From contig OZ253580.1 in NCBI GenBank assembly GCA_965263035.1, positions 32,001 through 96,000 of the forward strand: a stretch of 64,000 nt of DNA, read 5' to 3'. The position numbers and the translations under genes are program-made. How positions within the stretch are numbered: position 1 is the stretch's first letter; every line of letters begins with the position of its first letter. The notes beneath the pieces were generated by a model. The model made no database searches. It saw only the letters and a program-made list of their open reading frames with translations, and was not told the DNA's origin. The DNA is from Acidobacteriota bacterium. GTDB lineage: Bacteria; Acidobacteriota; UBA6911; RPQK01; JAJDTT01. Shown piece by piece: positions 5,528 through 57,324 of this stretch.

Positions 5528-6157
5528 GTGCGCCCGACATGGGCTGTATCTAAGGGATGAAAGATCCCAAGGGAGGTGATGGGACCAACCCTAGCCGAAC
5601 CGCAAGGCGTAGCCGCGAGGTGAAGCTGAAGGAAGCGGAAGGCAAACCCACGACCGCAGGAACACGAACCGGCAGTGAGGCCGGGTGCGGGCGGTGAGCT
5701 GGCGAGCAACAGCGAAACCCGAACCCCATCCAGACGCATCAGGTAGAGCCGGGCGGCCCGGGGGGAAAGATGCAGCACCTTACTCGGGGAGATCTCAAGG
5801 GTGAGAGCCCTTGAGAAGTCAGCAGAGGTCGTAGTAGCGAAGAAGCTGGGTAATGCCGGTGGAGCGAAGGACCGAAGGAGTCGGACTGGCCCTATGGTGG
5901 ACTCGTCAGCGGGATCGCAACTACCTCCGAAAACGGGCCGTGGGGAGGCCCCTCGGACCCGGCATGGAAGGCCCACGGGTGGAGCCCGGCAAGCCGGAAG
6001 GGCGGAGATCAAGTCTCAGCGGCGGCGGAAACCGGAAAGAAAGGCCCTGTACGAGGCTCGAAAGAGCCTCGGGTGACTCCAACCGCCGGATACTGAAAAC
6101 GGTATGTCCGGTGGTGTGGGAGGGTGCAGGGGCGCAATCCCCTGCACTCGACCCGAT
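5528..6157 (+). ncRNA. group IIC intron ribozyme, ORF-less (630 nt)
   Basis: 5' GTGCGCCCG; short domain V with CGC triad (AACCGCCGGATACTGAAAACGGTATGTCCGGTGG); DVI ends CCCGAT; inserted right after a hairpin; no RT ORF. Confidence 0.9.
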
Positions 6158-6419
6158 CGGCTCGGCGGTTGGAAATCGTTGCTCCAATCCTTGGAGAACA
6201 CCGACGGGCCGGCAGCGCATTGACAGCGTCATCGCGGTGTACGGCCGGACCTGCATCCCGGCGGACTTCATAGCTCCCCGGTCACATACGGGCTAGAATG
6301 CTCCCTTGGCGCATTTGGTCCGGCGAGCCGGGTCCCGGTTACGGGGGACGGTCACCACGGAAGGATTCCGAGGCGGGATTGCCGAAGCCAAAGGCTCAAC
6401 GATCTGCGGAGGATCCGTG

Positions 6420-8927
6420 ATGATGACGAATACCCGTTGGCTTGTGGCCCCGATCTTGGTCTGCCTGTGCCTGTCACAGAATGTGCGTTCCCAGGACTCG
6501 CCCACTCCGGTGGATCTGACTCCCTATCTCGTGCAGCCGAAAGCACAGGAATCGGGTCCGTCCGGATTCCAGTTGGCGTTCGCCGGCGAGGCCAGTCACC
6601 GGCTCCAGTTCCAGTATGGAGCCGAGGAGGCCGTCGAGCTGCAGGTGTCGGTGGGGTACCCGGCGGGAGGAGCTCGAACCCTGCGTCAGCTTCTGGACCC
6701 GGGTGCGGAAGGCCGTGAGGTCGGTTTCGATCTGGGGCCCCTGCTGGCCCACGGACCCTATCGTCCGATCCCCGCCTACACTCGCAAGGGTCCCCAGGCG
6801 AAGACTTGGCGTCCCTTGCGCACCGGCTGGTGGGTCGATACCCAGGATCCGGGCAAATATCTCGTGACCGTCATGGGAAGACGGGTGCGGGACGGCCAGA
6901 CCCTGTTTACGACCGACCTTCGGATCCCGGTCCAGAACTGGGTGGGGGCAGATCTGGACCGCTTGGCCTACATCGACGACAACGCGGCCGAGGCGGAGCT
7001 CTGGCTGGAGAAAGGCGCACCCGTCACGGAGCTGCCGGTCGAAGTGGATCTCGTGGAAGCCCGGACCGGCAGCCGGCGATCCTCCTCCACTCCGGTCCGC
7101 CTGACCCGGGACAAGATCCGGGTGGCCTTCGACCTGAGGGACCTGGAGTCAGCGACCTATCACGTTCGGGTCCGGCCTCGTATCGACGGCCGTCTCTGGG
7201 ACGACGGTGTCCGCCGGGCTCTCTACGTGTTCCGGAACGGGCCGCCGCCAAAACCGGAGCCACCTATCGAGATTCCGGTGGCTCCCCAGTTGTTCCTGGA
7301 CGACTTCCTGATCGATGAGCAGCGGAATCTCCAGAGGGTCTTCCATCCGGCTCGCAAGCTGGATGCTCAACCGATTGTCCGGGCGGACCGGCCCTGGGAG
7401 GGGCACGCGGTCATGGTGCCCAAGGGCTCGAGATACGAATTCAACGAGAAGCAGAACCGTTACGAACTGGAATACATTAGCCTGAGCCGCTATCGGTTGC
7501 TGGCCGTCTCCAGTGACGGAGTGCGTTGGACCAAGCCGGATCTGGGCCTGGTGGAGTTCGAGGGATCCCGGGCCAACAACATTCTGGAGATCGTTCCCCG
7601 CGGGAGCAACGTGGAAGCGGACGGCCGCTTCGGGGGACTGTGGGATTACAGGACTCGCGGGGTGCCTGATCTCCGGACCGCCAGCATGGTCTACACCCCC
7701 AAGACCGAAGACATGTTCTTCCTCCGGGGGACGTACCTGGTGGTCCGGGACTCGGACGGTGTCCGGTATCTCACCACGGAACGGCCCTTCATGCGGCATC
7801 ACTCGCAGTTGGAGTCGTTGGACAACCCCAACGACAACCTGGGGCCCATGTTCTACGACGAGCGGACGGGTGAGCTGGTGCTGTACTTCGCGCCGCATCC
7901 TCCGGCCAAGGGGCGGGGACTGGTGCGTTACGACAACAAGTGGGCGGTCTCGCGGAACCTGGGACGCATGACCACGCGAGACGGCGTGAACTGGCACCGG
8001 AGCTACATCTGGGCGCCGCCGCGGGAACATCCGAAGCACCAGAGTTACGGAATGCAGCGGGTGAAGCAGATCGGCGACCTGTACGTGGCGTTCTTTCCTC
8101 TCTACGACTGCGGGACGCAGCAGATGGACGTCCATATCTGGGTGAGCCGGAACGGGATTCACTGGGAGGATGTTGGAGGGGACCAAGCCTGGATCCCCAA
8201 CGGACCCGACGGCAGCTTCGATCATGGGATCGTCTACAGCCTCATCGACGGGCCGGTGGAGGGGGACCGGTCCGAGGCCTTCTACCACGGGACGAACACC
8301 CTGCACTTCAACGCCTGGATCCTGAGCCGGTTGAGGGGGGGATTGGATGATCCTCCAGTGCCAGCCTCCAAGATCTTCGACGAGAAGACCTACAACGGGC
8401 GGCCTTATCTGTCGCCGCCGGCGCCGGTGGGGCCGGGGTGGGCCATGTACGACTGCATCTGGAGTTGGCGGCGGCCTCGCTGCAGCCAGACCATGGAGGA
8501 AGTACGGGAAGCCTTCTGGGCCGAGGTGGAGGCGAACACGGGGCAGAATCGAAGCAACCACGTGGAGAAGAGCCGTGAGTACGAGATCGTGCCGTTCCGG
8601 GTGGAGTTTCGCACCAATGGGTTCGCGTCGAGACGGGCCGGGGAGCAGGAGGGCGTGTTGACGACCCATCCCTTGATCTTCCAAGGGAGCCGTCTGACGG
8701 TGAATGCCGCGGCAAGTGTGGGTCGAGTGGCTGTAGAGGTCTTGGACGAATGGGGTAGTCCCCTGCCCGGTTACGGCCGAAAGGAGTGCCGGCTCGAGGC
8801 CTTCGACAGCATTCAGCAGGAGGTCACATGGCGCGGACAATCGACTCTGGATACATTACGAGGCCACCCGGTTCGTCTCCGATTCTACGTTCACAAAGCT
8901 GACATTTACGGATTTCAAATACATTGA
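6420..8927 (+). CDS. secreted protein with a five-bladed beta-propeller glycoside-hydrolase-like domain
   Basis: GGAGG RBS, signal peptide, QLFLDD, S.DG..W Asp-box-like repeats, C-terminal LRFY..ADIYGF; paralogue of 49128-50693. Confidence 0.7.
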   Translation: MMTNTRWLVAPILVCLCLSQNVRSQDSPTPVDLTPYLVQPKAQESGPSGFQLAFAGEASHRLQFQYGAEEAVELQVSVGYPAGGARTLRQLLDPGAEGREVGFDLGPLLAHGPYRPIPAYTRKGPQAKTWRPLRTGWWVDTQDPGKYLVTVMGRRVRDGQTLFTTDLRIPVQNWVGADLDRLAYIDDNAAEAELWLEKGAPVTELPVEVDLVEARTGSRRSSSTPVRLTRDKIRVAFDLRDLESATYHVRVRPRIDGRLWDDGVRRALYVFRNGPPPKPEPPIEIPVAPQLFLDDFLIDEQRNLQRVFHPARKLDAQPIVRADRPWEGHAVMVPKGSRYEFNEKQNRYELEYISLSRYRLLAVSSDGVRWTKPDLGLVEFEGSRANNILEIVPRGSNVEADGRFGGLWDYRTRGVPDLRTASMVYTPKTEDMFFLRGTYLVVRDSDGVRYLTTERPFMRHHSQLESLDNPNDNLGPMFYDERTGELVLYFAPHPPAKGRGLVRYDNKWAVSRNLGRMTTRDGVNWHRSYIWAPPREHPKHQSYGMQRVKQIGDLYVAFFPLYDCGTQQMDVHIWVSRNGIHWEDVGGDQAWIPNGPDGSFDHGIVYSLIDGPVEGDRSEAFYHGTNTLHFNAWILSRLRGGLDDPPVPASKIFDEKTYNGRPYLSPPAPVGPGWAMYDCIWSWRRPRCSQTMEEVREAFWAEVEANTGQNRSNHVEKSREYEIVPFRVEFRTNGFASRRAGEQEGVLTTHPLIFQGSRLTVNAAASVGRVAVEVLDEWGSPLPGYGRKECRLEAFDSIQQEVTWRGQSTLDTLRGHPVRLRFYVHKADIYGFQIH

Positions 8928-9270: not shown

Positions 9271-10442
9271 ATGTCTAGTTACACCTCCAATTTCGCCGTC
9301 CGTCTATTCTACAGTTATAGCCACAAAGACAGTCATTTTCGCGACTCTATGGAAGACTCGCTTTCATTGCTCAAACAACGTGGATTGCTCGATGACTGGT
9401 CAGATGTAAAGATTTTACCCGGAGGAAAGATCTCGAAAACCAACAGGAAGAAGATGGATAACGCTGACATCATGGTGTTTCTTCTCAGCCGGAACTTCAT
9501 TGCTTCGACCGAGTGCATGAAGGAATGGGAGTACGCAAAGCGTCGTACTAATGAAAAAGTGCTCGTCCGCATTCCAATAATTCTATCCGATTGTGCGTGG
9601 CTAGATTTGCTTGGGAGCGACGACATCAAAGCATTGCCGCGAGATGGCAAACCTATCATGCGATTTGCCGATGACGGTGGCGCCTGGCAACAGGTATATG
9701 AGGGCATTAAAGTCGTTGTAGACAACTTACGAACAACTTTCACTCCAAAACAGGAATTCTTGGAGATAATGGAGAAAACCGATTTCTTGTCCGTACAACA
9801 CATTAGACTACAGGACATTTTTATATTTTTAAGATTGTCCTGTTACGCACCTCATGCAAGGGGGGAACATCCACCAAAAGAACAGGTTGACACCATAGAG
9901 GAGCTATTAAAGAATAAATATACGATAGTCCACGGTGACGAGATGAGTGGCAAGACAGCTCTCGGGCGCTTTCTGTTTCTTTCTCTGACAAAGGAGTTGG
10001 AACCTGTTCTGCATATAGATTTGCAACATCTTCCTAGACGTCCCCTTCGAGAAGAAACCTTTCGCCATACATATCACCGGCAGTTTAATGGCGATTATTC
10101 TCTCTGGAAGCGACAGCCTTCAAAAACCCTTATATTGGACAACTTGCAGCCAACTCCTCAATTAGTTAAATTTATTGTACTCTCCAAGGATTATTTCGAT
10201 AAAATAATAGTTACTTTATCGTCTGATATATTCAACTCGTTTTTCAGGGACGAAGAGCGTCTGGCCGAATTCTATGAAATGGAAATTGAACCGCTTACTC
10301 ACCGACAGCAAGAGACGTTGATTAGAAATAGACTCCGATTGTCGGATCGTAGCGAAACAATCACCGACGGCGTCGTCGATCAAATAGAAAACCGAGTGAA
10401 TTCCATAATCATTTCTAACAGGATCGTACCACGGTATCCATT
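9271..10442 (+). pseudogene. TIR-domain + P-loop (STAND-like) NTPase, 5' part; split by the IS1595 cargo element
   Basis: TIR motifs LFYSYSHKD and FIASTECMKE (catalytic Glu); Walker A HGDEMSGKT; frame joins 19074-20387 across the TSD (IVPRYP|FYVLSILQ). Confidence 0.88.
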
Positions 10443-10493
10443 GGGGACTACACAGATGTCTAGGCACGCCCAAATGCGCCAAATCAGAGACTA

Positions 10494-10710
10494 TCAATCT
10501 CGCACGAAAGTGCTAGAATAGGAAGAGGGGAGCACAACAACCAAGGGCCACACCATCACAACTGCAAGGCCATCAGTCATCTTAAGGCTCCCCTGCCCCA
10601 TTGCCTACCGAATCAGGTAGAATGGCGGGGAGGGGAGCATAAAAACCAAGGCCGACACTAACACAATTAGATCAGCGGCATCAGTCATCTTAAGGCTCCC
10701 CTCCATCATT
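10494..10710. other. two paralogous stem-closed cassettes: ncRNA (+) and/or 27-28 aa hydrophobic peptides (-)
   Basis: AGGGGAGC...GCTCCCCT closing stems, shared CATCAGTCATCTTAAG, TAGAAT upstream of each; minus-strand ORFs 10494-10580 and 10605-10688 both begin MTD. Confidence 0.55.
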
Positions 10711-10716
10711 TCATTA

Positions 10717-10907
10717 TACTGCTTGCCTGTAAGATCAGACCCACGAAAGTGCTAGAATGGGATGGAGGCGGGTTGCCCGACTTTGGATGATGGGGCCTGT
10801 TTCAGAAACAGGTTGGTCCTTATGGCCACGGAGGTTCGAGTCCTCCACCCGCCTCCATCAGGGTTATTGTACTGCTTGCCTGTAAGATCAGACCCACGAA
10901 AGTGCTA
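10717..10907 (+). repeat. 38-bp perfect direct repeat flanking a tRNA-like gene
   Basis: TACTGCTTGCCTGTAAGATCAGACCCACGAAAGTGCTA at 10717-10754 and 10870-10907. Confidence 0.9.
10767..10857 (+). tRNA. tRNA-like gene, anticodon CAG (Leu), Ser-type long variable arm, U73, encoded CCA
   Basis: Acceptor GGCGGGT/ACCCGCC; anticodon arm CCTGT-TTCAGAA-ACAGG; T arm GGAGG-TTCGAGT-CCTCC. Confidence 0.85.
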
Positions 10908-11159
10908 CAAGCCCTGTCGGTGAGACCTTTCTTTTGGAGTCAATGCCCATTCGACACCTCTCGGTTGATGGACTTTCCCTTGGTCCCTTAACAGTTTGAG
11001 TTGTCCTGTAGTAATTGCATTGAACCCCTGCTCTGGCAAACCGAGCTTTTCAGTAATTGGACTTAACGACAACCCCTCCTCGTATTTCTCCAATAGATTC
11101 AAGATTCCAGCTTGGATCAAGCGTTCTCCCATCTCTGCAAGCATTCTAGCCTCTGCCAT
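10905..11159 (-). CDS. small winged-helix-like protein
   Basis: AGGAGG RBS; ILNLL...GLSLSPITEKLGL...LKLLRDQGKV pattern typical of wHTH. Confidence 0.6.
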   Translation of the reverse strand: MAEARMLAEMGERLIQAGILNLLEKYEEGLSLSPITEKLGLPEQGFNAITTGQLKLLRDQGKVHQPRGVEWALTPKERSHRQGL

Positions 11160-11185
11160 CTGCTTCCTCCTAAGTAAAATACATC

Positions 11186-11485
11186 ATGGAACTAGGATTC
11201 ACACTTCCACCCACCCGACCCCGCCCAAAGATCCCTCTACAGCAAACGTGTAAGAGGTGTGGGCAACCAGACAAGTTCGACTTCCACGTACCAGATCATC
11301 TTTGGAAGTCTATAGTCCCAAAGTCCCATCGGAACCTTGCTATGTGTCTGTATTGCTTCGATGAGGAGGCCGCCGCTAAAGGTATTCCCTACGCGTGGGC
11401 CATCACTGAGTTTTGTTTTGCAGGCCGCGGAGCCACATTTGGCTTCACGGTGTCACGATACGTTGAAAAGAGGCAACTGATCTAG
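11186..11485 (+). CDS. small Zn-finger-like protein
   Basis: CKRC...CLYC pairs. Confidence 0.55.
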   Translation: MELGFTLPPTRPRPKIPLQQTCKRCGQPDKFDFHVPDHLWKSIVPKSHRNLAMCLYCFDEEAAAKGIPYAWAITEFCFAGRGATFGFTVSRYVEKRQLI

Positions 11486-11649
11486 TCGTCACAGTCGCCG
11501 TCCTTTTCTTTGGCCTGGCACTGATTGCAAAGTTCCCCGCTGGTCGGCTTCGCGTTCCTGCTAACGTAGTCGTCCGTTGGCCAGTTGGAACAGTTGCGGC
11601 AATAGTGCCACGTATCGCTCGTTCTTCGCTTTCGGTATTGTCTCGCCAT
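11482..11649 (-). CDS. small Cys/His-rich protein (55 aa)
   Basis: WHYCRNCSNWP...ELCNQC; AGGGGGTG RBS. Confidence 0.65.
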   Translation of the reverse strand: MARQYRKRRTSDTWHYCRNCSNWPTDDYVSRNAKPTSGELCNQCQAKEKDGDCDD

Positions 11650-11766
11650 GCTTTTCACCCCCTTTCTGGCTAGTCGTGATCCCATTAAGGAAGGAATCAG
11701 AGGAGCTTGATAAGAGACTTCAAATATAGCTTGAGTGCACGCCCAAATGCGCCAAATCGGATATTC

Positions 11767-11979
11767 TCAATCGTCAATCTGAGAGGCAGCGAACTCCAAG
11801 ACTCGGGCTAGTTCTCGGGCTTGGTTAGTACTCATATATGAGTAAACATTACCGTTTTCAATCCTCAGTTCCAGTGGGTAAGTCTCTTTGCAATCTTCCT
11901 CGTGAGGGTATCGAAGGCGAACTTCCCTGGTGGGGTACGCGCTCAATGTGATCTCAAATTCTTTCTTACTGTCTATCAT
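11767..11979 (-). CDS. hypothetical protein (70 aa)
   Basis: GGAGGAGAGG RBS; lies directly downstream of a 36-aa ORF at 11992-12102 (MAIVIIVLQHL...). Confidence 0.55.
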   Translation of the reverse strand: MIDSKKEFEITLSAYPTREVRLRYPHEEDCKETYPLELRIENGNVYSYMSTNQARELARVLEFAASQIDD

Positions 11980-12548
11980 GGTCCTCTCCTCCTATAGTCC
12001 CAACATTCGAGCAAACTGCTCCTTGGTCATGCCGTCATAAATGCTGCGTTTCGGCCTGAAGAAGTTATTTAGATGTTGCAGTACAATAATGACAATTGCC
12101 ATTGGTTTACATCTCCATAGTTATTTCATTGGCAACGGCCAGGGGGTTTGGGAGTTCTTCCCCCTGGCCACTAACCTTCCTCAGATATCATACCACAGAA
12201 TCAGGAAAAGGGAACGGCGGGGAAGAGCGGAGGAGTCTGACGGCTCCGAAGCGACACACTACGCATCAGATCCGACACCCGGCTTTCCAGTGTGTCACAG
12301 GCTCCCTTGCGTGCGTGAGCAAGTAGGCAAGGAGTTCATCCTCCGCTCCTCTGTCCTCTTATTGTACTCCGTGTGCAATACGTGGAGGATTTAGGAGGCG
12401 GCGCGGCTCCAACATGGAGCAAAGGGTTTTGTGTAGCCAGTTCAGTTAGGCAAAAACGCGCCGCCCTGGTAAATGCCTACCATGATATTCGATGGAGTGC
12501 AACCTGTGATCTGGATTTCTTGTCACAGGTGGTCTACGATGCGGTGGA

Positions 12549-12652
12549 GGAGGGGTGGCAGAATTGGCATTGCACTCGAATTTAAACTCGTAGGTCAGTA
12601 GGCGTTGCACCACAGCGCACCTGTACGGGTTCAAATCCCGTCCCCTCCTCCA
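12549..12652 (+). tRNA. aberrant tRNA-like gene (104 nt): 8-nt anticodon loop ATTTAAAC, very long variable arm, U73, CCA
   Basis: Acceptor GGAGGGG/CCCCTCC; D arm GCAGAATTGGCATTGC; T arm ACGGG-TTCAAAT-CCCGT; anticodon ambiguous (TTA counting from the 5' side). Confidence 0.65.
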
Positions 12653-12662
12653 TTGTGATGTC

Positions 12663-12751
12663 GGGAGCGTGGCCGAGTTGGATTATGGCGCCCGGCTGAA
12701 AACCGGGTGGGTGTAACAGCCCCGCAGGTTCGACACCTGCCGCTCCCGCCA
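12663..12751 (+). tRNA. tRNA with a Ser-type body (G73, long variable arm) and anticodon GAA (Phe), encoded CCA
   Basis: Acceptor GGGAGCG/CGCTCCC-G-CCA; anticodon arm CCCGG-CTGAAAA-CCGGG; T arm GCAGG-TTCGACA-CCTGC. Confidence 0.88.
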
Positions 12752-12773
12752 TCAATTCATAATACTCGGAGCA

Positions 12774-13223
12774 TCAAAAAAGCCTTTGACTTCGTTGGAG
12801 CAGGCCATCGAGTCTTCCTTTCGGAAGTTTTCCAACAGATTCCCAAATCGTCTCTCCAAAAACCGCCTCATACGATCCTGATTCGATGAACTCAGTAGCG
12901 TTTAGCGAGAGGATGACCCCAACACAGTCCGCCAGTATCAGTGCGGCCAGCGCCTCACGTCGGACCATCCCTCCAAAACCATTACGGGCACCAAAATCAA
13001 TTAGGACTAGTCGATACCCTTTAAGTTCAGGAGAGCTAGACGCGATCGTTTTTATTACTGTAGTGCTGTACACCTCCAGGCTGTTAGGGTCTGTCAACTT
13101 CTGTTGAATCTGCTCGTTTAGACCCGGAACACTGCCGTCTGAACTCATGCAATTAGACCCACTCGACGGCGTACAATTGGCGGTCAGAAGCACAAGAAGC
13201 AAAACGGTGCAGGAGTTTTCCAT
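12774..13223 (-). CDS. putative lipoprotein
   Basis: Hydrophobic signal ending LTANC; DFGARNGFGGMVR motif. Confidence 0.6.
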   Translation of the reverse strand: MENSCTVLLLVLLTANCTPSSGSNCMSSDGSVPGLNEQIQQKLTDPNSLEVYSTTVIKTIASSSPELKGYRLVLIDFGARNGFGGMVRREALAALILADCVGVILSLNATEFIESGSYEAVFGETIWESVGKLPKGRLDGLLQRSQRLF

Positions 13224-13254
13224 AACTCAATCTTTAATTAGAATAGATGTAGAC

Positions 13255-13343
13255 GGCGGGTTGCCCGACTTTTGGATGATGGGGCCTGTTTCAGAAACAG
13301 GTTGGTCCTTGTGGCCACGGAGGTTCGAGTCCTCCACCCGCCG
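13255..13343 (+). tRNA. tRNA-like gene, anticodon CAG (Leu), Ser-type variable arm, G73, no encoded CCA
   Basis: Near-identical copy of 10767-10857 with the discriminator changed to G; TAGAAT at 13239-13244. Confidence 0.83.
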
Positions 13344-13477
13344 CCCTTGCAATGAAGGAGGATGAGAACCGAAACCGTGCCTTCCCTAACTTCACACTGC
13401 CGACTAGAGCAGCTTAAAAGAAGGCGAGTAACGAACCGAAAAGCTCATCCTCCTCCATCAATTTATAATACTTTGAC

Positions 13478-14755
13478 CTAAAGTCCTGGCACAGAACTGC
13501 ACTTCGATGGAACGATCACAGGATCATCCGATTCCTCAGACTCTCGGTACCTAATAGACCCTCTTTGCGACCAGGGGAGGTTAGGCACATCGGGCAGTTC
13601 AATCTCTGTTCTAGTACCGCCTACGAATCCCTTATCTGGCACCAGTACCCATTCACCACGCCTGTACCAGATGTGAGATCGTGCCCAGACCCGCGAGTAC
13701 CTAATATCGATCGGATCATCTTCGGACATACGTCGGTGGAAAGCGCCGATGTTTGGATTAGGTTTAGAGCTACTAGAAAAGGAACTCGTCCAACTCAGCT
13801 TTCCAGAGAAATTCAACCTGGCCGTAGCGACACATCGACCTGGTCTTTCTTCAAATACCTGGTGGATCTGGTATCCTTGTGCAGTATCAGGCAACTCATA
13901 TCCGCCATCAGAGGTACGGGTTCTACCACCTCCTGCAGGAACCACTGACATCCCATTCTCCAGAGCAGGAGGGATCCCTTGGTAGTCAGCACGTGCTGCC
14001 TTCCCATAGATGCCTTCTATTGTGGTGTCAAAAGCTCCCTTTTCCCGTATTACAATGTCTCTCCAGTCACCAGGGGGACAGTCACCTTCCGTCACGTCTG
14101 GAGGGCCTTCATACAATCGCTCCCACTGTGCTTCATGCCACCGGGCGTTTCCATACTCCGGAGCAAAAGACTCAACTACCATCAAGGTGTAATCGAGCCC
14201 TGTCCCTGACTCTGGGTCGTCCACTTTGACAAGCCAACGCTTGAACTCATCTACAACTCGCCGATTCATGTCGGAGTAGCTTTTGACTCCGACAATGTGC
14301 CCACGGAAGTACTCGGTCCCAGAGAACGAATCAGAGAGAACACGTATACATTCCTCTGTCTTGAGGACTTCATGGGCATCTTGAATGGGCGCTTCGGTGA
14401 GCTCCACTGATTCGCACTCGAGTTCGTCTTTGAATCTAAAGGAGTCTGTTGGGTCCTTGTCTCCATAGATGAGTACAAGAGGGTCGGGAAGAGGAACGAC
14501 CATTGCAGCAAAGAACTTCCCTGACTCGTACTCTGTGACTCTCCACTCATAGATGTGACCACAATGGATCGCATCAAAAAATTCTAGGTTGATGATCTGA
14601 CCGTCGTGGGGAGGCTCTGAAAGACTCACCTCAACGCGACAATCTGGACAGGCGTTAGGGATAAATCCGTATGGAGTGTCGAATCCCCACTTCTCCTCGG
14701 CTTGTACATTCGCCAGGAATGCAGCAAAGGCCATTAGCACAATTACTTTTCTCAT
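13478..14755 (-). CDS. secreted acidic, Cys-containing hypothetical protein
   Basis: AAGGAGG RBS; signal peptide MRKVIVLMAFAAFLANVQA. Confidence 0.75.
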   Translation of the reverse strand: MRKVIVLMAFAAFLANVQAEEKWGFDTPYGFIPNACPDCRVEVSLSEPPHDGQIINLEFFDAIHCGHIYEWRVTEYESGKFFAAMVVPLPDPLVLIYGDKDPTDSFRFKDELECESVELTEAPIQDAHEVLKTEECIRVLSDSFSGTEYFRGHIVGVKSYSDMNRRVVDEFKRWLVKVDDPESGTGLDYTLMVVESFAPEYGNARWHEAQWERLYEGPPDVTEGDCPPGDWRDIVIREKGAFDTTIEGIYGKAARADYQGIPPALENGMSVVPAGGGRTRTSDGGYELPDTAQGYQIHQVFEERPGRCVATARLNFSGKLSWTSSFSSSSKPNPNIGAFHRRMSEDDPIDIRYSRVWARSHIWYRRGEWVLVPDKGFVGGTRTEIELPDVPNLPWSQRGSIRYRESEESDDPVIVPSKCSSVPGL

Positions 14756-14783
14756 AGCGTACCTCCTTACTCTGTATTCAGAT

Positions 14784-15128
14784 TCAGAATCCCAATGCCT
14801 TGCGGGCGAACTTCTGGATCTGTTTCCACATAATGACCTGATCGAAGTGATGGTCAACGCCGTAATGGTCAGTGTGCGTTATACCATCCTTCAAAATCTC
14901 GCCTGCAATGGGGAGCACGGAGTCGGGAGTCCACCGAGTCAGAACGTCCGAAGGATCGTCCGTCCGGCACAGGTACATCTGTGCTGTAATAACGATCATG
15001 TAGTCGCCTGTGTCGGACGGAATCACGAACAGTGCGTTTGGAGGAGTCTCCACCTCCGTGTTCCAAGGGTGTCCCACACCAAACGCGACGGATAGAATTG
15101 TGATAGCGATTAGCAATGTGTTTCTCAT
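14784..15128 (-). CDS. secreted hypothetical protein (114 aa)
   Basis: AAGGAGG RBS; signal peptide; likely co-transcribed with 13478-14755. Confidence 0.7.
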   Translation of the reverse strand: MRNTLLIAITILSVAFGVGHPWNTEVETPPNALFVIPSDTGDYMIVITAQMYLCRTDDPSDVLTRWTPDSVLPIAGEILKDGITHTDHYGVDHHFDQVIMWKQIQKFARKALGF

Positions 15129-15349
15129 AATGCCTCCTTCTCGTACCTTGTGTACGACTTGTTGATTTATGACATCGGTGACCGACGCATTTAGTACACT
15201 ATTATATCACATTATAATAGATGCACAAAGCAAGACGACCAAGGAATTAAGGAAGTATTCGGAAGGGGCGGGACAATAACAAACCGCCCCTTCGAACATC
15301 GCTCCGGGGTCGGGTGAAAGTAGTAAAGCCCTCCCCCATGTGGGAGCGA

Positions 15350-15586
15350 TTACCGGGGTGGCCGAATCAAAGCTACACCTTCATCGTCGTACTGTCCGAC
15401 CCAATTATCGTGGGACAGACGATGTCGGGCGTGCGATCTCAACTGTGCCCGAGTTGCCGGGAGGAGCAGACCCATGAGGCGCGTCTGATCCTGAGCGAGG
15501 GGCAACAACGCTTCCCAGGTAATGCCTCCTGGCGCAGTCATCAAGTGATCGAGGTATCCGGCGTAGGTGCTGAAATTGCGGGGCAT
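15350..15586 (-). CDS. hypothetical protein (78 aa)
   Basis: AGGAGG RBS; preceded by a long structured leader. Confidence 0.5.
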   Translation of the reverse strand: MPRNFSTYAGYLDHLMTAPGGITWEALLPLAQDQTRLMGLLLPATRAQLRSHARHRLSHDNWVGQYDDEGVALIRPPR

Positions 15587-15991
15587 CGCGGGTCCCTCCT
15601 GGGGGAGGGTCCCGTATCAGAGGCGTAGCAAGCTGACAACGTATCGGGTAAACTGTCTGACAGGCTGACTTTCCTCCAACACAGGACCAGTTGGCTCAGA
15701 GTCCGTTGGGTGCTGATATCACCTGACGGACTCACCTTTTCAGAGTACTCGGCCTAGCTACAAGGAGCACTCGTTCCCTTGTAAGGGAGCCGGGTCTGAG
15801 TGCTCATCGAACAGCGATGCTGATGGAAGAGTTGCTTATTCACCCGGCGCGGTTCATGAGGCCACGCTTTACCAGGTTGTTTTATTCAGCAAGAGACCCG
15901 ACACAAGCGAATCACTGCCGAGAGCACTGAGGCGGGATTGTGCCGGATAAATAATTGGTAGTCAATAGAAGGGAGAAAATTATCTCAACTC

Positions 15992-16219
15992 TCAGCGGAG
16001 GGTGTCCACCACGGCATTCCGTACCGATTCCATCCAGGTCTCAATCTCCCGCTGGTGTTGGACCAGGGCCTTTACCTTGTCGTCCACAATCCGCAGCCGT
16101 CGGATAATGAGCAGGTGAGAGACGATGATGAGGAATAGGACCAGGAGCAAGGCGAAGGCGTACCAGTGTTGATCGACGATGGGAGGGATTCGGGAGAGTA
16201 ATGAGTTGAGCTGTTCCAT
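15992..16219 (-). CDS. small single-TM membrane protein
   Basis: One hydrophobic helix YAFALLLVLFLIIVSHLLII followed by a coiled-coil-like tail. Confidence 0.6.
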   Translation of the reverse strand: MEQLNSLLSRIPPIVDQHWYAFALLLVLFLIIVSHLLIIRRLRIVDDKVKALVQHQREIETWMESVRNAVVDTLR

Positions 16220-16272
16220 GCTTCAATCTTCCTGCTTTGCCGAAGTATAATACATACATGGCGGAGGGTTGA

Positions 16273-16348
16273 TGGACGCAGCGGGCTTCGGACCCGCGTC
16301 TCCCGGTTTTCAGCCGGGTGTGTTATCCGGGATAAACACTATGCGCCC
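16273..16348 (-). tRNA. tRNA with Ala identity elements (G3:U70, A73) and anticodon GAA (Phe)
   Basis: On the minus strand: acceptor GGGCGCA/TGCGTCC-A; anticodon arm CCCGG-CTGAAAA-CCGGG; T arm GCGGG-TCCGAAG-CCCGC. Confidence 0.82.
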
Positions 16349-16475
16349 TCGGTTTGCTTTTCCCTCCGCCATTCTAAACATCTTGCCAAGGTCAGGGGTC
16401 TTTGGTATTTTGGCCTCTCTCGCGCATGATTGTAGGCAATCAATATTATGTGTTATCATGTGTTCTTCAATGATG

Positions 16476-16551
16476 TGGAGCCGGTGCCAGGAATCGAACC
16501 TGGACACGAGGACTTGCTGGGCCCCGGCGTTTGCCATTCCGCCACACCGGC
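16476..16551 (-). tRNA. tRNA-like gene, anticodon AGC (Ala), no G3:U70, U73, CCA
   Basis: Acceptor GCCGGTG/CACCGGC-T-CCA; loop CCAGCAA; T arm CCAGG-TTCGATT-CCTGG. Confidence 0.8.
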
Positions 16552-16575
16552 TCCCTTCATTATAGACCGTCAGAG

Positions 16576-16651
16576 GGGAGCCGGTGCCAGGAATTGAACC
16601 TGGAAACAAGGAATTGCGAGTCCCCGACCTTGGCCACTCAGTCACACCGGC
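16576..16651 (-). tRNA. tRNA-like gene, anticodon CGC (Ala), no G3:U70, U73
   Basis: Second unit of a 100-bp tandem repeat; loop CTCGCAA; 3' end TCCC. Confidence 0.8.
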
Positions 16652-16675
16652 TCCCTTCATTATAGACCGTCAGAA

Positions 16676-16751
16676 GGGAGCCGGTGCCAGGAATCGAACC
16701 TGGAAACAAGGAATTGCCACTCCCCGACCTTGGCCACTCGGCCACACCGGC
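16676..16751 (-). tRNA. tRNA-like gene, anticodon GGC (Ala), no G3:U70, U73
   Basis: Third unit of the 100-bp tandem repeat; loop GTGGCAA; 3' end TCCC. Confidence 0.8.
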
Positions 16752-16871
16752 TCCCTTCATTTTAGCACAGGGGGACTATCGTGAAAAAACGACCTCGCAA
16801 GCCCGTGGACATCCTAGCCCTGGCAATGCGCCGGGCTTATGAGCAAACTAGGGGCGGAGAAGCCGAATCCC

Positions 16872-17843
16872 TCAATGAAGATCGTCCGCCTTGTCGGAAA
16901 CCAGATCGAGATACAGCAGACGACGACCGACCATCCCCGCCACGATGTGCTTCATCTGGTCAATAGTATCCAGTTCCCGGATGTTGTGACGCTTGACAAA
17001 CTCGTTGACGTAGCGGTGCAGGTGCTTCACGCTCAAGCTGTGGAACGTCCCCATGTAGCCCCGCTTCAACATCGACCAGAAGGATTCGATGCCATTTGTG
17101 TGTACTATGCCGTCAACGTACTGTTGAGCGCTGTGTCTCACAGACTTGCGATTTGAGCCCATCCAGGCGTAAGCCTGATTCTCGTCCGTGTACGACTTCA
17201 CTCCGAAAGTGGAGCTGTCCAAAATGAACCGGGCAAGAGTCTCCTTTGTCGTGTCCGGCACCACCCTGGCCCTGATTTGATTCGTAGGCCGGTCCTTCAT
17301 GCCTACCACTGCGGTCTTGCCTGAGGGTCCACGACCGGAAAACATCGCCCGTCGCTTCTTGCTCATGTTCCTCCGCTTGCCTCCCATATAAGTCTCGTCG
17401 ATTTCCACGGGACCGATCAGAGCTTCCAAATCGTCCTTGTCCAAGGACTCGCGGAGTCGGTGCAACATGAACCACGCCGTATTCTGCGTCACGTCGATGT
17501 CTCGATGGAGTTTCATCGAGGAGACTCCCTTGAGGTTCGTGACGTAGATGAAAATGGCGTAGGCCCATTTTCGGAGCGGAACCTTGGATCTTGTCAAGGC
17601 CGTGCCAGTGCGGACGCTGAAATACCTACGGCAGTCCGAACACCAGTACGGCTGCGGATATCGGTTTGGCGTCTCATTCGTCTTGACGCTGCCGCAATGA
17701 CCACAGCACCGTTCCTCGGGCCAGAGAACATCCTCAAACCATTTCGTCGCGGCTTCCTCCGTGGGGAACATCTCCGCGAGTTGGATCATTGAGATCCCTT
17801 GTCGGTAGAACTTTCCGGGGGCTTTCCCCTTGCACTTGTCCAT
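16872..17843 (-). CDS. IS1595-family (ISXO2-like) transposase, intact
   Basis: Zn ribbon CGHCGS/CSDC, AWFMLHRLR, VEIDETY, YTDE, HTNGIESFWS, YVNEF. Confidence 0.93.
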   Translation of the reverse strand: MDKCKGKAPGKFYRQGISMIQLAEMFPTEEAATKWFEDVLWPEERCCGHCGSVKTNETPNRYPQPYWCSDCRRYFSVRTGTALTRSKVPLRKWAYAIFIYVTNLKGVSSMKLHRDIDVTQNTAWFMLHRLRESLDKDDLEALIGPVEIDETYMGGKRRNMSKKRRAMFSGRGPSGKTAVVGMKDRPTNQIRARVVPDTTKETLARFILDSSTFGVKSYTDENQAYAWMGSNRKSVRHSAQQYVDGIVHTNGIESFWSMLKRGYMGTFHSLSVKHLHRYVNEFVKRHNIRELDTIDQMKHIVAGMVGRRLLYLDLVSDKADDLH

Positions 17844-18079
17844 GGTGGGCCTTTCGTGGTAGGATTCTCGGGACGCGGCTGAACCGAGGAACCCACGGCC
17901 TGGCAACCTCCGTTTGTAAGTGAGAGACCAGAGCGCAGGACCTGCTTCGAAACCGCGTCCAATTCAATTATATCACACCTTTATAGATGGTGTTTTTATC
18001 AGCCTTACTCTCCTTTAATTCCCTGTAATTATGCCATCGGACCCTGACATTTTTCTGTCATAAATCCTTTGTTTAGTTT

Positions 18080-18438
18080 AAGGTTACGAAGATTTAATTG
18101 ACCTTTTGTGTGATTGTGTGGTAAAATTATTGGGTTAATGTGAACAGGAGGCATGATGACTAAGAAGGAACTCAACGGATTCACAGAGGCAGTTCGAACG
18201 GTTGTCCGAGAGGAATTAAAGCCGATTGAGCAGCGTCTCGACAAACGCCTTGACGACTTGAAGAAGGAAATCCCTGGTCTAGTTGCGGACGTGATCGCAC
18301 AACGATTTCCAACCCTGTTCCCACACTCATAGGCTGCCAGATCAATTAGGAGGAAGGTTACGAAGATTTAATTGACCTTTTGTGTGATTGTGTGGTAAAA
18401 TTATTGGGTTAATGTGAACAGGAGGCATGATGACTAAG
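18080..18438 (+). promoter_or_regulatory. duplicated 85-bp promoter+RBS+start block
   Basis: Identical at 18080-18164 and 18354-18438: TTGACC-N18-TAAAAT with extended TG, AGGAGG, ATGATGACTAAG. Confidence 0.8.
18153..18332 (+). CDS. small coiled-coil protein (59 aa, MMTKKELNGFTEAVR...)
   Basis: Hand-translated; strong promoter and RBS; N-terminus paralogous to 18427-18705. Confidence 0.7.
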   Translation: MMTKKELNGFTEAVRTVVREELKPIEQRLDKRLDDLKKEIPGLVADVIAQRFPTLFPHS

Positions 18439-18705
18439 GAAGAACTCAACGGTTATGTCAACGCCGTCAGGCTCGTGGTCCAGGAGGAACTTGAGCCCGT
18501 CAAATCTCAGATTACAACCCTGACTCTTCGAATGGGAGATGTGGAACTGAGGTTGGGAGAGGTTGAAGCCAGAATGGGCACGTTGGAGTCTCGCATGGGA
18601 ACGGTCGAGGCCAGAATGGGGACATTGACTCAGAGAATGGGTGATGTTGAGACTAAGGTAGGGGCGTTGACTCAGAGAATGGGTGATGTTGAAGCCAAAT
18701 TGTAG
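18427..18705 (+). CDS. heptad-repeat coiled-coil protein (92 aa)
   Basis: 7-aa repeats such as RMGDVEL, RLGEVEA, RMGTLES. Confidence 0.75.
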   Translation: MMTKEELNGYVNAVRLVVQEELEPVKSQITTLTLRMGDVELRLGEVEARMGTLESRMGTVEARMGTLTQRMGDVETKVGALTQRMGDVEAKL

Positions 18706-19073
18706 GATGGGGTGATGGAGGAGAACGACTAGACGTAGTTGTAGGGGTAGGTGACTACTGCCCCTCCGGGGGGAGCGATGGAGTTAGTCAAACTACCACT
18801 CCCTCTGTCCCCTCCATCATTTAATTATACTCCCCACGAAAGTGTAGAATGGGATGATGGAGGAGGGAAACCAATCCTGCCGTCCCATGTATTAACACCA
18901 CAATCGGCAGGGCTACCGTTGAGGCACACCCCAAGGCGGTAGGCTGCTCAGCGATAGTGTGTCTTCCACTGGGTCCAGCCATCGCCCTCCTCCATCATGT
19001 GATTGTACTCCCCACGAATGTAAGGCCCAGTTCAATGACCCTGGAGGCGTGCCTAGACATCTGTGTAAGCCCC

Positions 19074-20387
19074 TATCCATTCTACGTACTCTCAATACTC
19101 CAAACCTACGAGGCCTTTATGCCTAGTGAGCTCTCTATTACTTCCTACGGTCACTGTTACTATGTCCTTATTATTGCCAACTTAGTTAAGGCAGGCATAC
19201 CTCGTAGCGACGATCAACTAAATACATGTTTTTACTTTGCAGAACGCTTAGCATTTGAAATTTATCGGATTGCAAGGAAATCCAACTCGGGGTCGTTGGA
19301 TTTTGACAAGTTTGTGGCGGACTACAGAAATCAATATATAATTTCGCGATCGGTCCTGAGTAGGTTGATGCATCCCGATTTTGGAATCATCAATACAGAA
19401 GGTCAATTCAAAACAGCGTACATGTACTACTTCTTTCTGGGCAGGTTCCTCTCGAAGAACCGCAGCACACACATATCCATAATTGAGAATATGTGTGAAA
19501 ATAGCCACGTGACTTCGAACCACCTGACGCTTCTTTTCGTTATTCATCATACTGATGATAGACAAATAATTGATGACATATTGCTTAGGACAATGTGCAC
19601 ACTGGACACTGTGCAACCCGCGGTTCTAGATCGAACGGAAACTCGGAGATTCAAGGATATCATTGCCGGGCTCCCCACAAATATACTCTCCAATGATAGT
19701 GTGGTGAAGGAAAGGAAAAGACAGAGGGATGGTCGCGACTTGACCGAGAAGCAAGACGGGTACGATGGTGATACGGATGGCATCGATCAACAAAGCCTGG
19801 TTAACGACATTTACAAAATCTTTAAAAATAACGAGATTATGGGGCAAATTCTACGAACCAAATACGGAACGTTAAAAAAAGAGACGATTGTGGAAATCAT
19901 CGAGACGATTGCGGACAGTGGGCTACGCCTTGTCAACTTTGTCCTCAAGGATGAAAAGGAAATAGCCGATACCGCCCACTACCTTCATGCGAAATATCCG
20001 AAGGATGATATAAAGAAGATAAAAAACTATCTTCAATTCTTTTCTTTTTTCTGGACGATAGTAAATGTTGAAAAAGTTGCTAGAGCCATAAATGTTCCAG
20101 AGATTATTGAAACGGTCGATTCAGTCGTTACGCGGAAGGGGTCGCCGGCGTACGATCTTATTGGATACTTCAGCCTGCTCGACAGTTCTCCGGAAATCTC
20201 AAGGAAAGTTAATAAACGACTAGGATACCTATTGAACACTCACAAGGACCTGTTTGTTAAGTGGGTGTTGTCAATTAGAACGCAATACTATATGAATACC
20301 CACGATAGTGGGGCATCGATGGAGCAATCGGTCTGTTCGTTGTTAGATATCAAGTATTCCTCAGCCCATCGTTCCTTACGACGGTAA
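19074..20387 (+). pseudogene. TIR-NTPase gene, 3' part (reconstituted protein about 825 aa)
   Basis: In frame with 9271-10442 once the element and one TSD copy are removed; same low-GC codon style. Confidence 0.88.
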
Positions 20388-25303: not shown

Positions 25304-26377
25304 TCAAAAACTGCTGCGTCCTAGTAAATCGAGGGCAGTTTGCGGCCGTAATGGCTCGATATGGGCGAGTGCATTGCGCGCCTTGCGCAGCTGCCGGACG
25401 CCTCTGCGCAGGGCCCAAGTTCCTCCTCGCCGTACCACCGAATGTAGTTCCCCAATTTCCAAGTCATCAGGGTTCCTGGAGGCCATGCCATTTCGACGTA
25501 AGTGACGCCTAATCTCAGAAGCATTACGTCGCACGATCACACCGCGCCATGATTCAATTCGTGGAAGTAACACCGATGCTTGCGCACTCCATACCCGGCG
25601 GTTGATCTCACGCGGCGGTTCGTCGAGCGCGGCAAGGGCTGCGTGCACTTTACCCGATCCAGACGCGGTACCGAATCTCCACTCGGAAGGTGTTGCGATC
25701 GTCCAACCTCTATCGTGTGCAAACAAACGAAGTATCTCACACGGAGCCAGGATCGCGTTGATGTCCTCATCGACCAAGAGCTCGGCGGTTTCGAACTCCC
25801 AAGCCGCCACACGGGCGATTGTCATCGCCAACAAAACTGCTTCCGACTCAGCTATCCCCCGTCGCAAGAGACATTCATGCGCCCAGAACAGAATATCCAT
25901 TTCGCCAACTACGTTGTTCCAGTCGTGAACAGACATGCACACATCTGTATCCGGTGGATTCCCCAGCGGTGCACCCTCCAACGGCGCTACAAACAGAGTC
26001 CGTCCCAACGCCGATACGCTACGACAAGCGTGAGCGTACTTCGCGAGAAAGTCACGCCAGCAAAGCCAATTACTCGACGTCAAGTCGTCCAACCAGATTA
26101 GCCTTCCGCGGAATGCATCGTTTTCACAAATTACTGGCAAATCGTCGTCATGCATAGAAGAACCAGGCGCATACTGATTACATAATGACTCAAACGGAGA
26201 ATCGCCGGCGCTGAACCTGTTCATGACCAGAACATGATCCAATTTCGCCATCACGGAGTCGCAGAACCCATTCGGCATGGCGCCTGGGAACCTCGCAACT
26301 ACGTTGACTCCGTTGCGAAGAGATCGCTCCACCGCTTCCACGAATCGTACCGGACCTGGCAAGTCCCATAGTCTCAT
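25304..26377 (-). CDS. hypothetical protein with a C-terminal HEPN-like RxxxxH motif
   Basis: LRKARNALAH near the C-terminus; start overlaps the stop of the upstream ATPase (ATGA). Confidence 0.6.
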   Translation of the reverse strand: MRLWDLPGPVRFVEAVERSLRNGVNVVARFPGAMPNGFCDSVMAKLDHVLVMNRFSAGDSPFESLCNQYAPGSSMHDDDLPVICENDAFRGRLIWLDDLTSSNWLCWRDFLAKYAHACRSVSALGRTLFVAPLEGAPLGNPPDTDVCMSVHDWNNVVGEMDILFWAHECLLRRGIAESEAVLLAMTIARVAAWEFETAELLVDEDINAILAPCEILRLFAHDRGWTIATPSEWRFGTASGSGKVHAALAALDEPPREINRRVWSAQASVLLPRIESWRGVIVRRNASEIRRHLRRNGMASRNPDDLEIGELHSVVRRGGTWALRRGVRQLRKARNALAHIEPLRPQTALDLLGRSSF

Positions 26378-56694: not shown

Positions 56695-57324
56695 GTGCGC
56701 CCGACATGGGCTGTATCTAAGGGATGAAAGATCCCAAGGGAGGTGATGGGACCAACCCTAGCCGAACCGCAAGGCGTAGCCGCGAGGTGAAGCTGAAGGA
56801 AGCGGAAGGCAAACCCACGACCGCAGGAACACGAACCGGCAGTGAGGCCGGGTGCGGGCGGTGATCTGGCGAGCAACAGCGAAACCCGAACCCCATCCAG
56901 ACGTACCAGGTAGAGCCGGGCAGCCCGGGGGGAAAGATGCAGCACCTTACTCGGGGAGATCTCAAGGGTGAGAGCCTTTGAGAAGTCAGCAGAGGTCATA
57001 GTAGCGAAGAAGCCGGATAATGCCGGTGGAGCGAAGGACCGAAGGAGTCGGACTGGCCCTATGGTGGACTCGTCAGCGGGATCGCAACTACCTCCGGAAA
57101 CGGGGCGGGGGGAGGCCCCTCGGACCCGGCACGGAAGGCCCAAGGGTGGAACCCGTCAAGCCGGAAGGGCGGAGATCAAGTCCCAGCGGCGGCGAAAACC
57201 GGAAAGAAAGGCCCTTTACGAGGCTCGAAAGAGCCTCGAGTGACTCCAACCGCCGGATACTGAAAACGGTACGTCCGGTGGTGTGGGAGGGTGCAGGGGC
57301 GCAATCCCCTGCACTCGACCCGAT
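56695..57324 (+). ncRNA. group IIC intron ribozyme, ORF-less (630 nt), second copy
   Basis: Near-identical to 5528-6157; inserted after the CGGCGGCAAGAAAGCCGCCG hairpin. Confidence 0.9.

Follow-up and report, generated by a model that had tools for sequence, protein, structure and literature searches.

Why should a bacterium carry, in a row, three tRNA genes that bear alanine anticodons on bodies that are not those of alanine tRNAs? The question is raised by a 64,000-nucleotide stretch of DNA from an Acidobacteriota bacterium (assembly GCA_965263035.1, contig OZ253580.1, positions 32,001 to 96,000), referred to here as the window and used for all coordinates below unless another contig is named. 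Its minus strand holds three intact head-to-tail tRNA genes with the anticodons GGC, CGC and AGC, which ARAGORN places at 16676-16752, 16576-16652 and 16476-16551, respectively. This array is passenger cargo of an IS1595-family transposon that cuts a TIR-STAND defence gene, and the mobile-element context is a larger finding than the array itself.

The three genes score 51.9 (GGC), 52.7 (CGC) and 50.9 (AGC) bits with the Rfam tRNA model, for which the gathering score is 29. We denote them unit A (GGC, 16679-16751), unit B (CGC, 16579-16651) and unit C (AGC, 16476-16551). The CCA end is encoded in unit C only, at 16476-16478; the discriminator base U73 of unit A (at position 16679) and of unit B is followed by a CCC trailer. 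The start-to-start spacings are exactly 100 and 100 bp, and Tandem Repeats Finder describes the stretch 16477-16765 as 2.9 copies of a 100-bp period with 89% matches; the array originated by tandem duplication of a 100-bp module that comprises a -10 box and a tRNA gene. All three units possess the same acceptor stem, GCCGGUG/CACCGGC with C3-G70, followed by U73. A first-pass annotation of the window had placed at 16476-16764 an exact 100-bp array with these anticodons, this acceptor stem and this discriminator, all of which is borne out, although the strand has to be corrected to minus. The array is not an assembly artefact, because contigs of two independent studies tile all three units without differences; within this tiling, a 32-nt word common to the two array spacers shows double depth.

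According to the Rfam alignment and the covariation count described below, the units combine a 7-bp acceptor stem with a 5-bp T stem; the alignment further shows a 5-nt variable loop and a normal T loop. The positions on which the tertiary fold of a working tRNA depends (U8, A14, G18-G19, U54-U55-C56 and A58) are retained. Compared pairwise, the bodies differ at 5, 12 and 13 positions, including 2, 5 and 6 changes in stems, and the number of base pairs broken by these differences is zero in each comparison. The three units are intact class-I tRNA genes, with a shape that is maintained by selection. They had been described as differing in the anticodon only at the wobble position; position 34 does vary, but so do positions 32 and 33 of the loop (GUGGCAA in unit A, CUCGCAA in unit B, CCAGCAA in unit C), along with the bodies.

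The simplest answer to the question would be that these are ordinary extra tRNA-Ala genes, charged by alanyl-tRNA synthetase (AlaRS), as the anticodons and the tRNA-Ala label assigned by ARAGORN would imply. However, the NGC anticodon is the only tRNA-Ala mark that the units carry: the acceptor stem is free of G:U pairs in all three, position 3:70 is C-G rather than G3:U70, and the discriminator is U73 rather than A73. The genuine tRNA-Ala genes of the host genome (6.2 Mb, with 63 ARAGORN tRNA calls) have the anticodons GGC, UGC and CGC, and all three of them possess both G3:U70 and A73; since this set is complete and canonical, the array would be redundant as tRNA-Ala. Judged on these identity marks, the array genes are not tRNA-Ala, and charging by AlaRS is extremely improbable. 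The absence of the alanine determinant and the rarity of AGC anticodons had both been pointed out at first pass, and both hold: AGC is otherwise missing from the host genome, where A34 recurs only in tRNA-Arg(ACG).

The leader GGGA is complementary to the trailer UCCC (U73 plus trailer), and consecutive leader-trailer pairing continues past the 7-bp acceptor stem for 7, 4 and 3 pairs in units A, B and C, which brings the terminal stem to 14, at least 11 and 10 bp, respectively. The same extension averages 1.4 pairs, with a maximum of 4, in 56 housekeeping tRNAs of the host genome, and the minimum-energy folds of the array units contain the long stems. The terminal inverted repeat of 11 bp (10 bp in the CCA-bearing unit) proposed earlier is therefore confirmed, and in the GGC unit exceeded. 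The boxes TATAAT, TATAAT and TGCTAAAAT each end 7 nt before position +1 of a unit, in agreement with the proposal that each unit has its own -10 box; a consensus scan gives a -35-like partner for the box of unit A only. There, it predicts a promoter-like site at 16759-16787 (-) that consists of TTTTCA, a 17-nt spacer and TAAAAT with TG (an extended -10), with 9 of 12 consensus matches, whereas the TATAAT boxes of unit B (16659-16664, -) and unit C (the identical box at 16559-16564) are absent from the output of the scan and have no -35 partner in it. We infer that the array is transcribed from the extended -10 before unit A, perhaps also from the inner boxes.

Where, then, does the array reside? 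The transposon occupies 10443-19073 (8,631 bp) and is bounded by 28-bp terminal inverted repeats (left, 10443-10470; right, 19046-19073) that match at 26 of 28 positions; an 8-bp target duplication, TATCCATT, flanks it at 10435-10442 and 19074-19081. Target duplications of 8 bp are typical of the IS1595 family. A single transposase gene was recognized within the transposon; it lies immediately upstream of the array, at 16872-17906 (-), and encodes a 344-residue IS1595-family transposase (Pfam DDE_Tnp_IS1595, 1.8e-34; Zn_ribbon_IS1595, 6.4e-05). The 8,631-bp element is single-copy in the host genome. To its left lies the N-terminal part of the TIR-STAND gene (9271-10442, +; Pfam TIR_2; PADLOC ThsB-like, 1.9e-29), the open reading frame (ORF) of which encodes a TIR domain together with the first part of a STAND NTPase and continues into the element to 10521. 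To its right lies the C-terminal part (19074-20387, +, within an ORF at 18957-20387; PADLOC PDC-S60, 2.3e-24, C-terminal half). Among the matches listed, this C-terminal half has 87 longer homologues of 834-994 residues, most of which carry an N-terminal TIR domain, and no match in 16 relatives. The first part aligns to residues 18-407 of an intact 838-residue homologue and the second part from residue 402 onwards, so that the two meet at the sequence VPRYPF. Because this homologue reads across the target duplication at exactly the repeat ends, we conclude that the host gene was split by the transposon. The region of the window from about 8 to 33 kb is lower in G+C content than its flanks (46-60% versus approximately 59-69%).

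The array is accompanied by other cargo. The region (10.7-16.8 kb) yields eight Rfam tRNA hits, all of them inside the element, and the five outside the array are irregular as well. A long-variable-arm tRNA with the leucine anticodon CAG at 10767-10857 (+; ARAGORN, Rfam 44.4 bits) has U73, an encoded CCA and a 6-nt leader that pairs with the trailer; a second CAG long-arm tRNA at 13255-13345 (+), recovered by ARAGORN and as a member of two repeat families, has G73 and is 97% identical to the first. A 101-nt tRNA-like gene at 12549-12649 (+; Rfam 39.4 bits) combines an irregular middle with U73 and an encoded CCA, and a long-variable-arm tRNA with the phenylalanine anticodon GAA at 12663-12751 (+; ARAGORN, Rfam 52.9 bits) has G73, an encoded CCA and Ser-type features. 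The fifth is a nested tRNA-like RNA at 16260-16372 (-; Rfam 50.6 bits), in which an inner cloverleaf at 16273-16348, with the anticodon GAA (Phe), G3:U70 and A73, is enclosed by an 11-bp outer stem; its fold is stable (-55.8 kcal/mol, z -4.5), both its D loop and its T loop depart from the norm, and the GAA long-arm tRNA has exactly the same anticodon arm, CCCGG-CUGAAAA-CCGGG. Published identity rules connect a long arm with G73 or U73 to seryl-tRNA synthetase (SerRS) and G3:U70 to AlaRS, as described in PMC5389517. By their features, the long-arm tRNAs with leucine and phenylalanine anticodons are candidates for serine insertion at leucine and phenylalanine codons. These five genes, the status of the array as transposon cargo and its Cys-like body (see below) had all escaped the first-pass annotation.

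The cargo genes are tied together by shared flanking signals. The tRNA-type genes have in common an extended -10 module, GTGCTAGAAT or GTGCTAAAAT, leaders complementary to the discriminator-CCA trailer and a recurring CCAUCA trailer. Around the small RNAs of the element, a promoter-like module, CACGAAAGTG(C)TAGAAT, recurs at 10503-10523, 10742-10762, 10895-10910 and 18836-18852, and a 3' module, CCTCCATCA...TTATACT, at 10697-10720, 12743-12766, 13449-13472 and 18808-18831; at 10618-10710 the same start and end modules surround a plain hairpin rather than a tRNA. Next downstream of the tRNAs is a 75-residue ORF (15992-16219, -) without a family match, which is preceded by a Shine-Dalgarno-like AGGAAG and encodes one hydrophobic (membrane) helix. 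Searches of Pfam, NCBIfam, PADLOC and the ESM Atlas matched none of the cargo ORFs except one coiled-coil ORF. Towards the right end of the element, a 92-residue coiled-coil ORF contains three 42-nt repeats (18554-18669), and a 99-nt direct repeat, 98% identical between its copies at 18080-18178 and 18354-18452, comprises a -10-like box and a start codon.

Transposases of the IS1595 type are encoded in 31 of 76 genomes of the order (E 1e-40 or better), the closest, at 79% identity, being that of G004, a genome of the same genus. The G004 element is about 4.8 kb long with related terminal repeats, and its cargo consists of a long-arm GAA tRNA, an irregular G73 tRNA and a third tRNA-like gene. 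The irregular G73 tRNA stands directly downstream of the transposase, with TATAAT 8 nt before +1 and a 6-nt loop, AUCGCA. An Ala-anticodon array is absent from this sister element, and since other tRNAs are present instead, the cargo varies between sister elements. The same genome also encodes (L193, 3004-3076, -) a 73-nt short-arm tRNA with the serine anticodon GCU, C73, an abnormal T loop (GUCAAUA) and the CCCGG/CCGGG anticodon stem of the GAA tRNAs in the window, approximately 0.7 kb upstream of an IS1-like transposase.

Are the Ala anticodons on these bodies an accident of one genome? In a sample of 401 genomes of the phylum, a pattern that leaves the anticodon free has matches in 3; with one mismatch allowed, it has matches in 5 of 76 genomes of the order. 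Both tallies include an unpublished genome without a match (G016), which enters into no other claim. One of the five matches, in G030, is a tRNA of a different kind, leaving family members in four of the 76 genomes: that of the window, with three genes, G010 of the same taxonomic family, and G021 and G055 of other families of the order. A BLAST search of the array against 61 relative genomes yielded one true homologue, in G055, and a stricter pattern, built from both known sequences and therefore a narrow scan, found only the G055 record besides the genome itself in a collection of genome contigs. A further member is encoded on the soil contig L038. Altogether, four Acidobacteriota genomes and one soil contig supply the seven genes of the family. 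Outside the genome of the window the genes are solitary, with the anticodon AGC in three genomes and UGC in the contig; no homologous array was found among the relatives examined, and plasmid and phage collections gave no match. A contig of a third study, in which a gene that differs from unit A at 2 positions in 83 nt is followed by a similar spacer, is the only hint of another array.

All four bases thus occur at position 34 of the seven genes (A four times, G, C and U once each), whereas G1:C72, G35, C36, A37, U48 and U73 are invariant in all seven, although the pattern does not force them. The anticodons are accordingly conserved and not random, because every family gene keeps NGC together with A37 and U73. 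The family cloverleaf has 93.2% of its stem cells paired, and 14 of 21 pairs have changed on both sides, values that none of 500 shuffles reached; with partners slid by 1-3 columns, pairing does not exceed 59%. For the earlier proposal of selected coverage of the alanine codon box by a non-Ala tRNA, which random anticodons in homologues would have refuted, this means that the conservation of NGC is upheld, whereas coverage of three codons is confined to this one genome.

These comparisons bear directly on the view that the genes are functionless relics, that is, duplicated and decaying tRNA-like DNA carried along by insertion sequences (IS). The G055 copy, in which two anticodon-stem pairs and one acceptor-stem pair are mismatched, would fit decay, the copies sit among IS fragments, and the array locus is in no RNA run listed. 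On the other hand, the two-sided changes at 14 of 21 pairs and the lack of any pair-breaking difference within the array speak for maintenance, as does the comparison of G010 with G021, which represent two taxonomic families: identity is 97.3% in the tRNA and 95.0% in the 121-nt spacer that follows it, compared with 65.2% in the adjacent transposase gene. We consider relics very unlikely.

The single AGC genes of G010, G021 and G055 abut IS1-like transposase genes, the fragment in G055 being 72% identical to the G010 protein. The possibility that the tRNA belongs to the IS1-like element in these genomes was rejected for G010 and G021, whose copies are the only 2 of 30 examined loci that have the tRNA; the transposase family itself has matches in 25 of the 76 genomes of the order. 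Homology to other IS1-like copies begins just 3' of the tRNA and no terminal repeats enclose it, which suggests that the tRNA lies just outside the IS1-like element. Around the AGC tRNA of G010 and G021 (L019 and L176, both at 1369-1722, -), non-coding DNA is 85-95% identical versus 65% for the IS1-like transposase, and a stretch approximately 170-180 nt upstream is complementary to the anticodon arm or the 3' flank of the tRNA.

If the array is not tRNA-Ala, what is its body? A pattern composed of the D arm and T arm of the three units, with acceptor stem, discriminator and anticodon left free, retrieved at least 120 stretches in metagenome contigs and 33 in viral contigs (153 together); a pairing filter (at least 6/7, 4/5 and 4/5 pairs) removed 30, 2 more ran off the contig end, and 121 were kept. 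Among the matches listed, 96 of these 121 cloverleafs have GCA with U73, as in ordinary tRNA-Cys, and the 99 cloverleafs with U73 comprise these 96, one with UGC (the family member), one with CUA and one with UCC. The family itself has U73 and the G13-A22 mismatch of tRNA-Cys in all seven genes, and the array shows a Cys-type D arm and core, with a purine-purine 13:22 and an AGUGGYNA-type D loop. The anticodon GCA of tRNA-Cys is missing from positions 34-36, but the same triplet stands at 35-37 in seven of seven genes. Among the housekeeping tRNAs of the host, tRNA-Cys is the nearest to two of the three units, weakly so (49-50 of 73 positions identical). Judging by U73, G13-A22 and the Cys-type D arm, the body of the array is tRNA-Cys-like.

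The scan also revealed Cys-like bodies with the amber anticodon CUA in the metagenome and viral contigs L079, L115, L124, L144 and L151; L079 has two such tRNAs (5837-5910 and 6184-6256, -). Their discriminators are G73, U73 or A73, and they are candidate natural amber suppressors.

We tentatively interpret the three genes as missense-suppressor tRNAs of cysteine identity, charged by a non-Ala synthetase, most likely cysteinyl-tRNA synthetase (CysRS). Transcription would be driven by the extended -10 of unit A, and perhaps also by the TATAAT boxes of units B and C, and the RNAs would mature to 7/5 tRNAs that AlaRS would ignore and another synthetase, CysRS as the best guess, would charge. CysRS would read U73 together with its triplet GCA shifted by one place to 35-37; on the ribosome, A34 would pair with GCU, C34 with GCG, and G34 with GCC or GCU, and cysteine would be inserted at alanine codons. 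U73 is the main mark by which CysRS recognizes its tRNA, and we favour this enzyme because U73 and GCA at 35-37 are present in all seven genes. Every normal tRNA-Ala also contains G35-C36-A37, however, so that the triplet by itself does not separate retention for CysRS from retention for reading GCN. By a rough count over 2,070 long ORFs, in which alanine accounts for 8.6% of all codons, host alanine is encoded by GCU (13%), GCC (49%) and GCG (29%), and the three anticodons could read approximately 91% of host alanine codons; the single AGC genes of the relatives would affect the rare GCU only.

Several observations weigh against cysteine identity and decoding. Since about 91% of host alanine codons would be readable, efficient Ala-to-Cys substitution would be very toxic. 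No synthetase domain was recognized with Pfam and NCBIfam in the ORFs tested inside the transposon, and a search of the host genome for a second, dedicated CysRS returned one strong match only. The lack of a listed RNA run with the array locus likewise counts against an active suppressor. CysRS is described as strongly dependent on G34-C35-A36 in the normal register (PMC5389517), and recognition in a shifted register is an analogy only. Its model would be the His-type GGU tRNAs of Acidobacteria, reported to be well charged by Escherichia coli histidyl-tRNA synthetase, with GUG at 35-37 suggested as the means; this closest precedent, although charged, failed to decode in E. coli (PMC5389517).

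Doubt about the identity also comes from the acceptor stem, which together with U73-CCA is one compensated pair away from that of the host tRNA-Thr(CGU). The array might thus consist of missense suppressors of threonine or glycine identity, which would replace alanine with threonine or glycine. For threonine, G1:C72, C2:G71 and G35 are present and U36 alone is changed to C, the NGC and NGU anticodons differing at position 36 only; for glycine, U73, G1:C72, C2:G71 and C36 are present, and bacterial tRNA-Gly is described as carrying U73 (10.1101/322289, PMC3990555). Yet these acceptor marks are not conserved, as C2:G71 occurs in the three window genes only and the other four family members have G2:C71, and the D arm is Cys-type, not Thr- or Gly-type. 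Furthermore, an irregular U73 tRNA is described as charged by neither glycyl- nor threonyl-tRNA synthetase of E. coli (PMC5389517), and we regard both identities as unlikely, leaving cysteine as the preferred one.

A broader alternative is that the RNAs are made and perhaps charged but do not decode, and that the mobile element uses them for regulation, as decoys or for addiction; they would, for example, soak up a synthetase or a tRNA-cutting enzyme, or serve as the RNA part of a toxin-antitoxin-like module that stabilizes the transposon. U33 is universal in tRNA anticodon loops, and the C33 of the AGC unit, like the G32 of the GGC unit, is unusual for a decoding tRNA. The 7, 4 and 3 extra leader-trailer pairs form a stem that could block processing or charging, a small membrane ORF follows just downstream of the array, and the soil-contig relative adjoins a DUF6932 + HTH pair. 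Among published irregular tRNAs, the His-type molecules cited above were charged without decoding, and most allo-tRNA(UAU) molecules are described as inactive in translation (PMC5389517). Retention of the tertiary positions of a working tRNA, a cloverleaf that covaries, and the invariance of positions 35-36, which is expected if codon reading matters, point in the opposite direction, and no partner protein was recognized among the element ORFs searched. We deem a non-decoding role less probable than missense suppression by cysteine.

Missense suppression can be extended to the transposon as a whole, although this wider scheme is doubtful: the element would be a mobile mistranslation kit in which the charging identity of tRNAs (Ser, Ala, Cys) is uncoupled from their anticodons (Leu, Phe, Ala). 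For the anticodon-blind enzymes SerRS and AlaRS, the anticodon would simply have been replaced, whereas for CysRS the GCA would have been slid to 35-37, so that the enzyme would see GCA and the ribosome NGC; the same slide might account for GUG at 35-37 of the His-type tRNA in the literature. Allo-tRNAs of the Ser and Ala types are described as mistranslating in E. coli (PMC5389517). Triplication would have widened the target from rare GCU to approximately 91% of alanine codons. The result would be a switchable scrambling of the proteome, perhaps as a toxin, abortive-infection or stress device of the mobile element.

Elsewhere in the window, the same low-G+C island encodes a 1,993-residue protein with a STAND/AAA ATPase core (26374-32355, -) and an adjoining 357-residue ORF (25304-26377, -). 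Neither matches a PADLOC model, and the two may represent an undescribed defence pair. Two group II intron copies lie at 5609-5872 and 56776-57039 (+; Rfam D1-D4 models, 85.5 and 76 bits), the first of them followed by a long ORF at 6306-8927.

Natural tRNAs that misinsert amino acids at sense codons are, to our knowledge, limited to a few cases, namely Candida CUG, the Streptomyces tRNAProX family and the acidobacterial allo-tRNAs. As far as the literature has been searched, the array is the first case of arrayed wobble variants that cover most of a codon box. If it is active, ambiguity of the genetic code could spread horizontally as a cassette, and a rule for fooling anticodon-dependent synthetases, a shift of the triplet by one position, would become available for genetic-code engineering; if it is inactive in decoding, it represents a new class of RNA that has the shape of a tRNA and is linked to mobile DNA.

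How does the array compare with known systems? It belongs with the irregular tRNAs that Mukai et al. 2017 (PMC5389517) described in Acidobacteria, as polycistrons near transposons and toxin-antitoxin genes. The resemblance includes the phylum, the occurrence of several odd tRNAs in a row, the disagreement between body and anticodon, the transposon or toxin-antitoxin neighbourhood and a presumed synthetase triplet at 35-37 (GUG in the His-type tRNAs, GCA here); in addition, long-arm Leu and Phe tRNAs with G73 or U73 and a G3:U70 tRNA with a non-Ala anticodon, both of which the element described here carries, correspond to kinds reported in that study. Unlike the array, the allo-tRNAs split their 12-bp branch as 8/4 or 9/3 and have a long variable arm, compared with 7/5 and a 5-nt loop. 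The available text of that study mentions no Cys-like body with Ala anticodons and describes neither an exact tandem array diversified at the wobble base nor a transposon defined by its repeats and target duplication.

The precedent named in the first-pass annotation, Streptomyces tRNA-ProA, is apt as far as AGC on a non-Ala body is concerned, but the acidobacterial precedent was missed; in working principle, these two are the systems nearest to the array. The tRNAProA/tRNAProX genes of Streptomyces and Kitasatospora (PMC10404621, PMC11415595), likewise from soil bacteria, have the rare anticodon AGC with A34 on a non-Ala body, the software label tRNA-Ala and a base other than U33 (A33 there, C33 in one unit here). 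In contrast to the array, which has G1:C72 (in all seven family genes) and a Cys-like U73, the body is of the Pro type with C1:G72 (PMC10404621), and tRNAProX possesses a synthetase of its own, ProRSx, whereas no synthetase-like gene was recognized near the array; only the latter is triplicated, with G34 and C34 variants, inside a transposon. The selC* tRNA-Cys (PMC5389517, PMC11415595) also combines a U73 Cys-type tRNA with a non-Cys anticodon and may still be charged by CysRS. It differs in its 8/4, tRNA-Sec-like shape, its long variable arm and its reading of UGA, and in some bacteria is described as having a special CysRS partner devoid of the anticodon-binding domain, in place of the one ordinary CysRS here.

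Passenger-gene elements of the IS1595 family (Siguier et al. 2009, as cited in PMC3129680) share with the present transposon the zinc-ribbon DDE transposase, the terminal repeats, the 8-bp duplication and the carriage of unrelated passengers, which in this instance are eight tRNA or tRNA-like genes and small ORFs. Literature searches yielded no account of alanine anticodons on Cys-like tRNAs, nor of IS1595 elements that carry tRNA genes. Thus, relative to all of these systems, three features appear to be new: the pairing of Ala anticodons with a Cys-like body, the tandem array diversified at the wobble position, and a bounded IS1595 transposon with eight passengers of the tRNA type.

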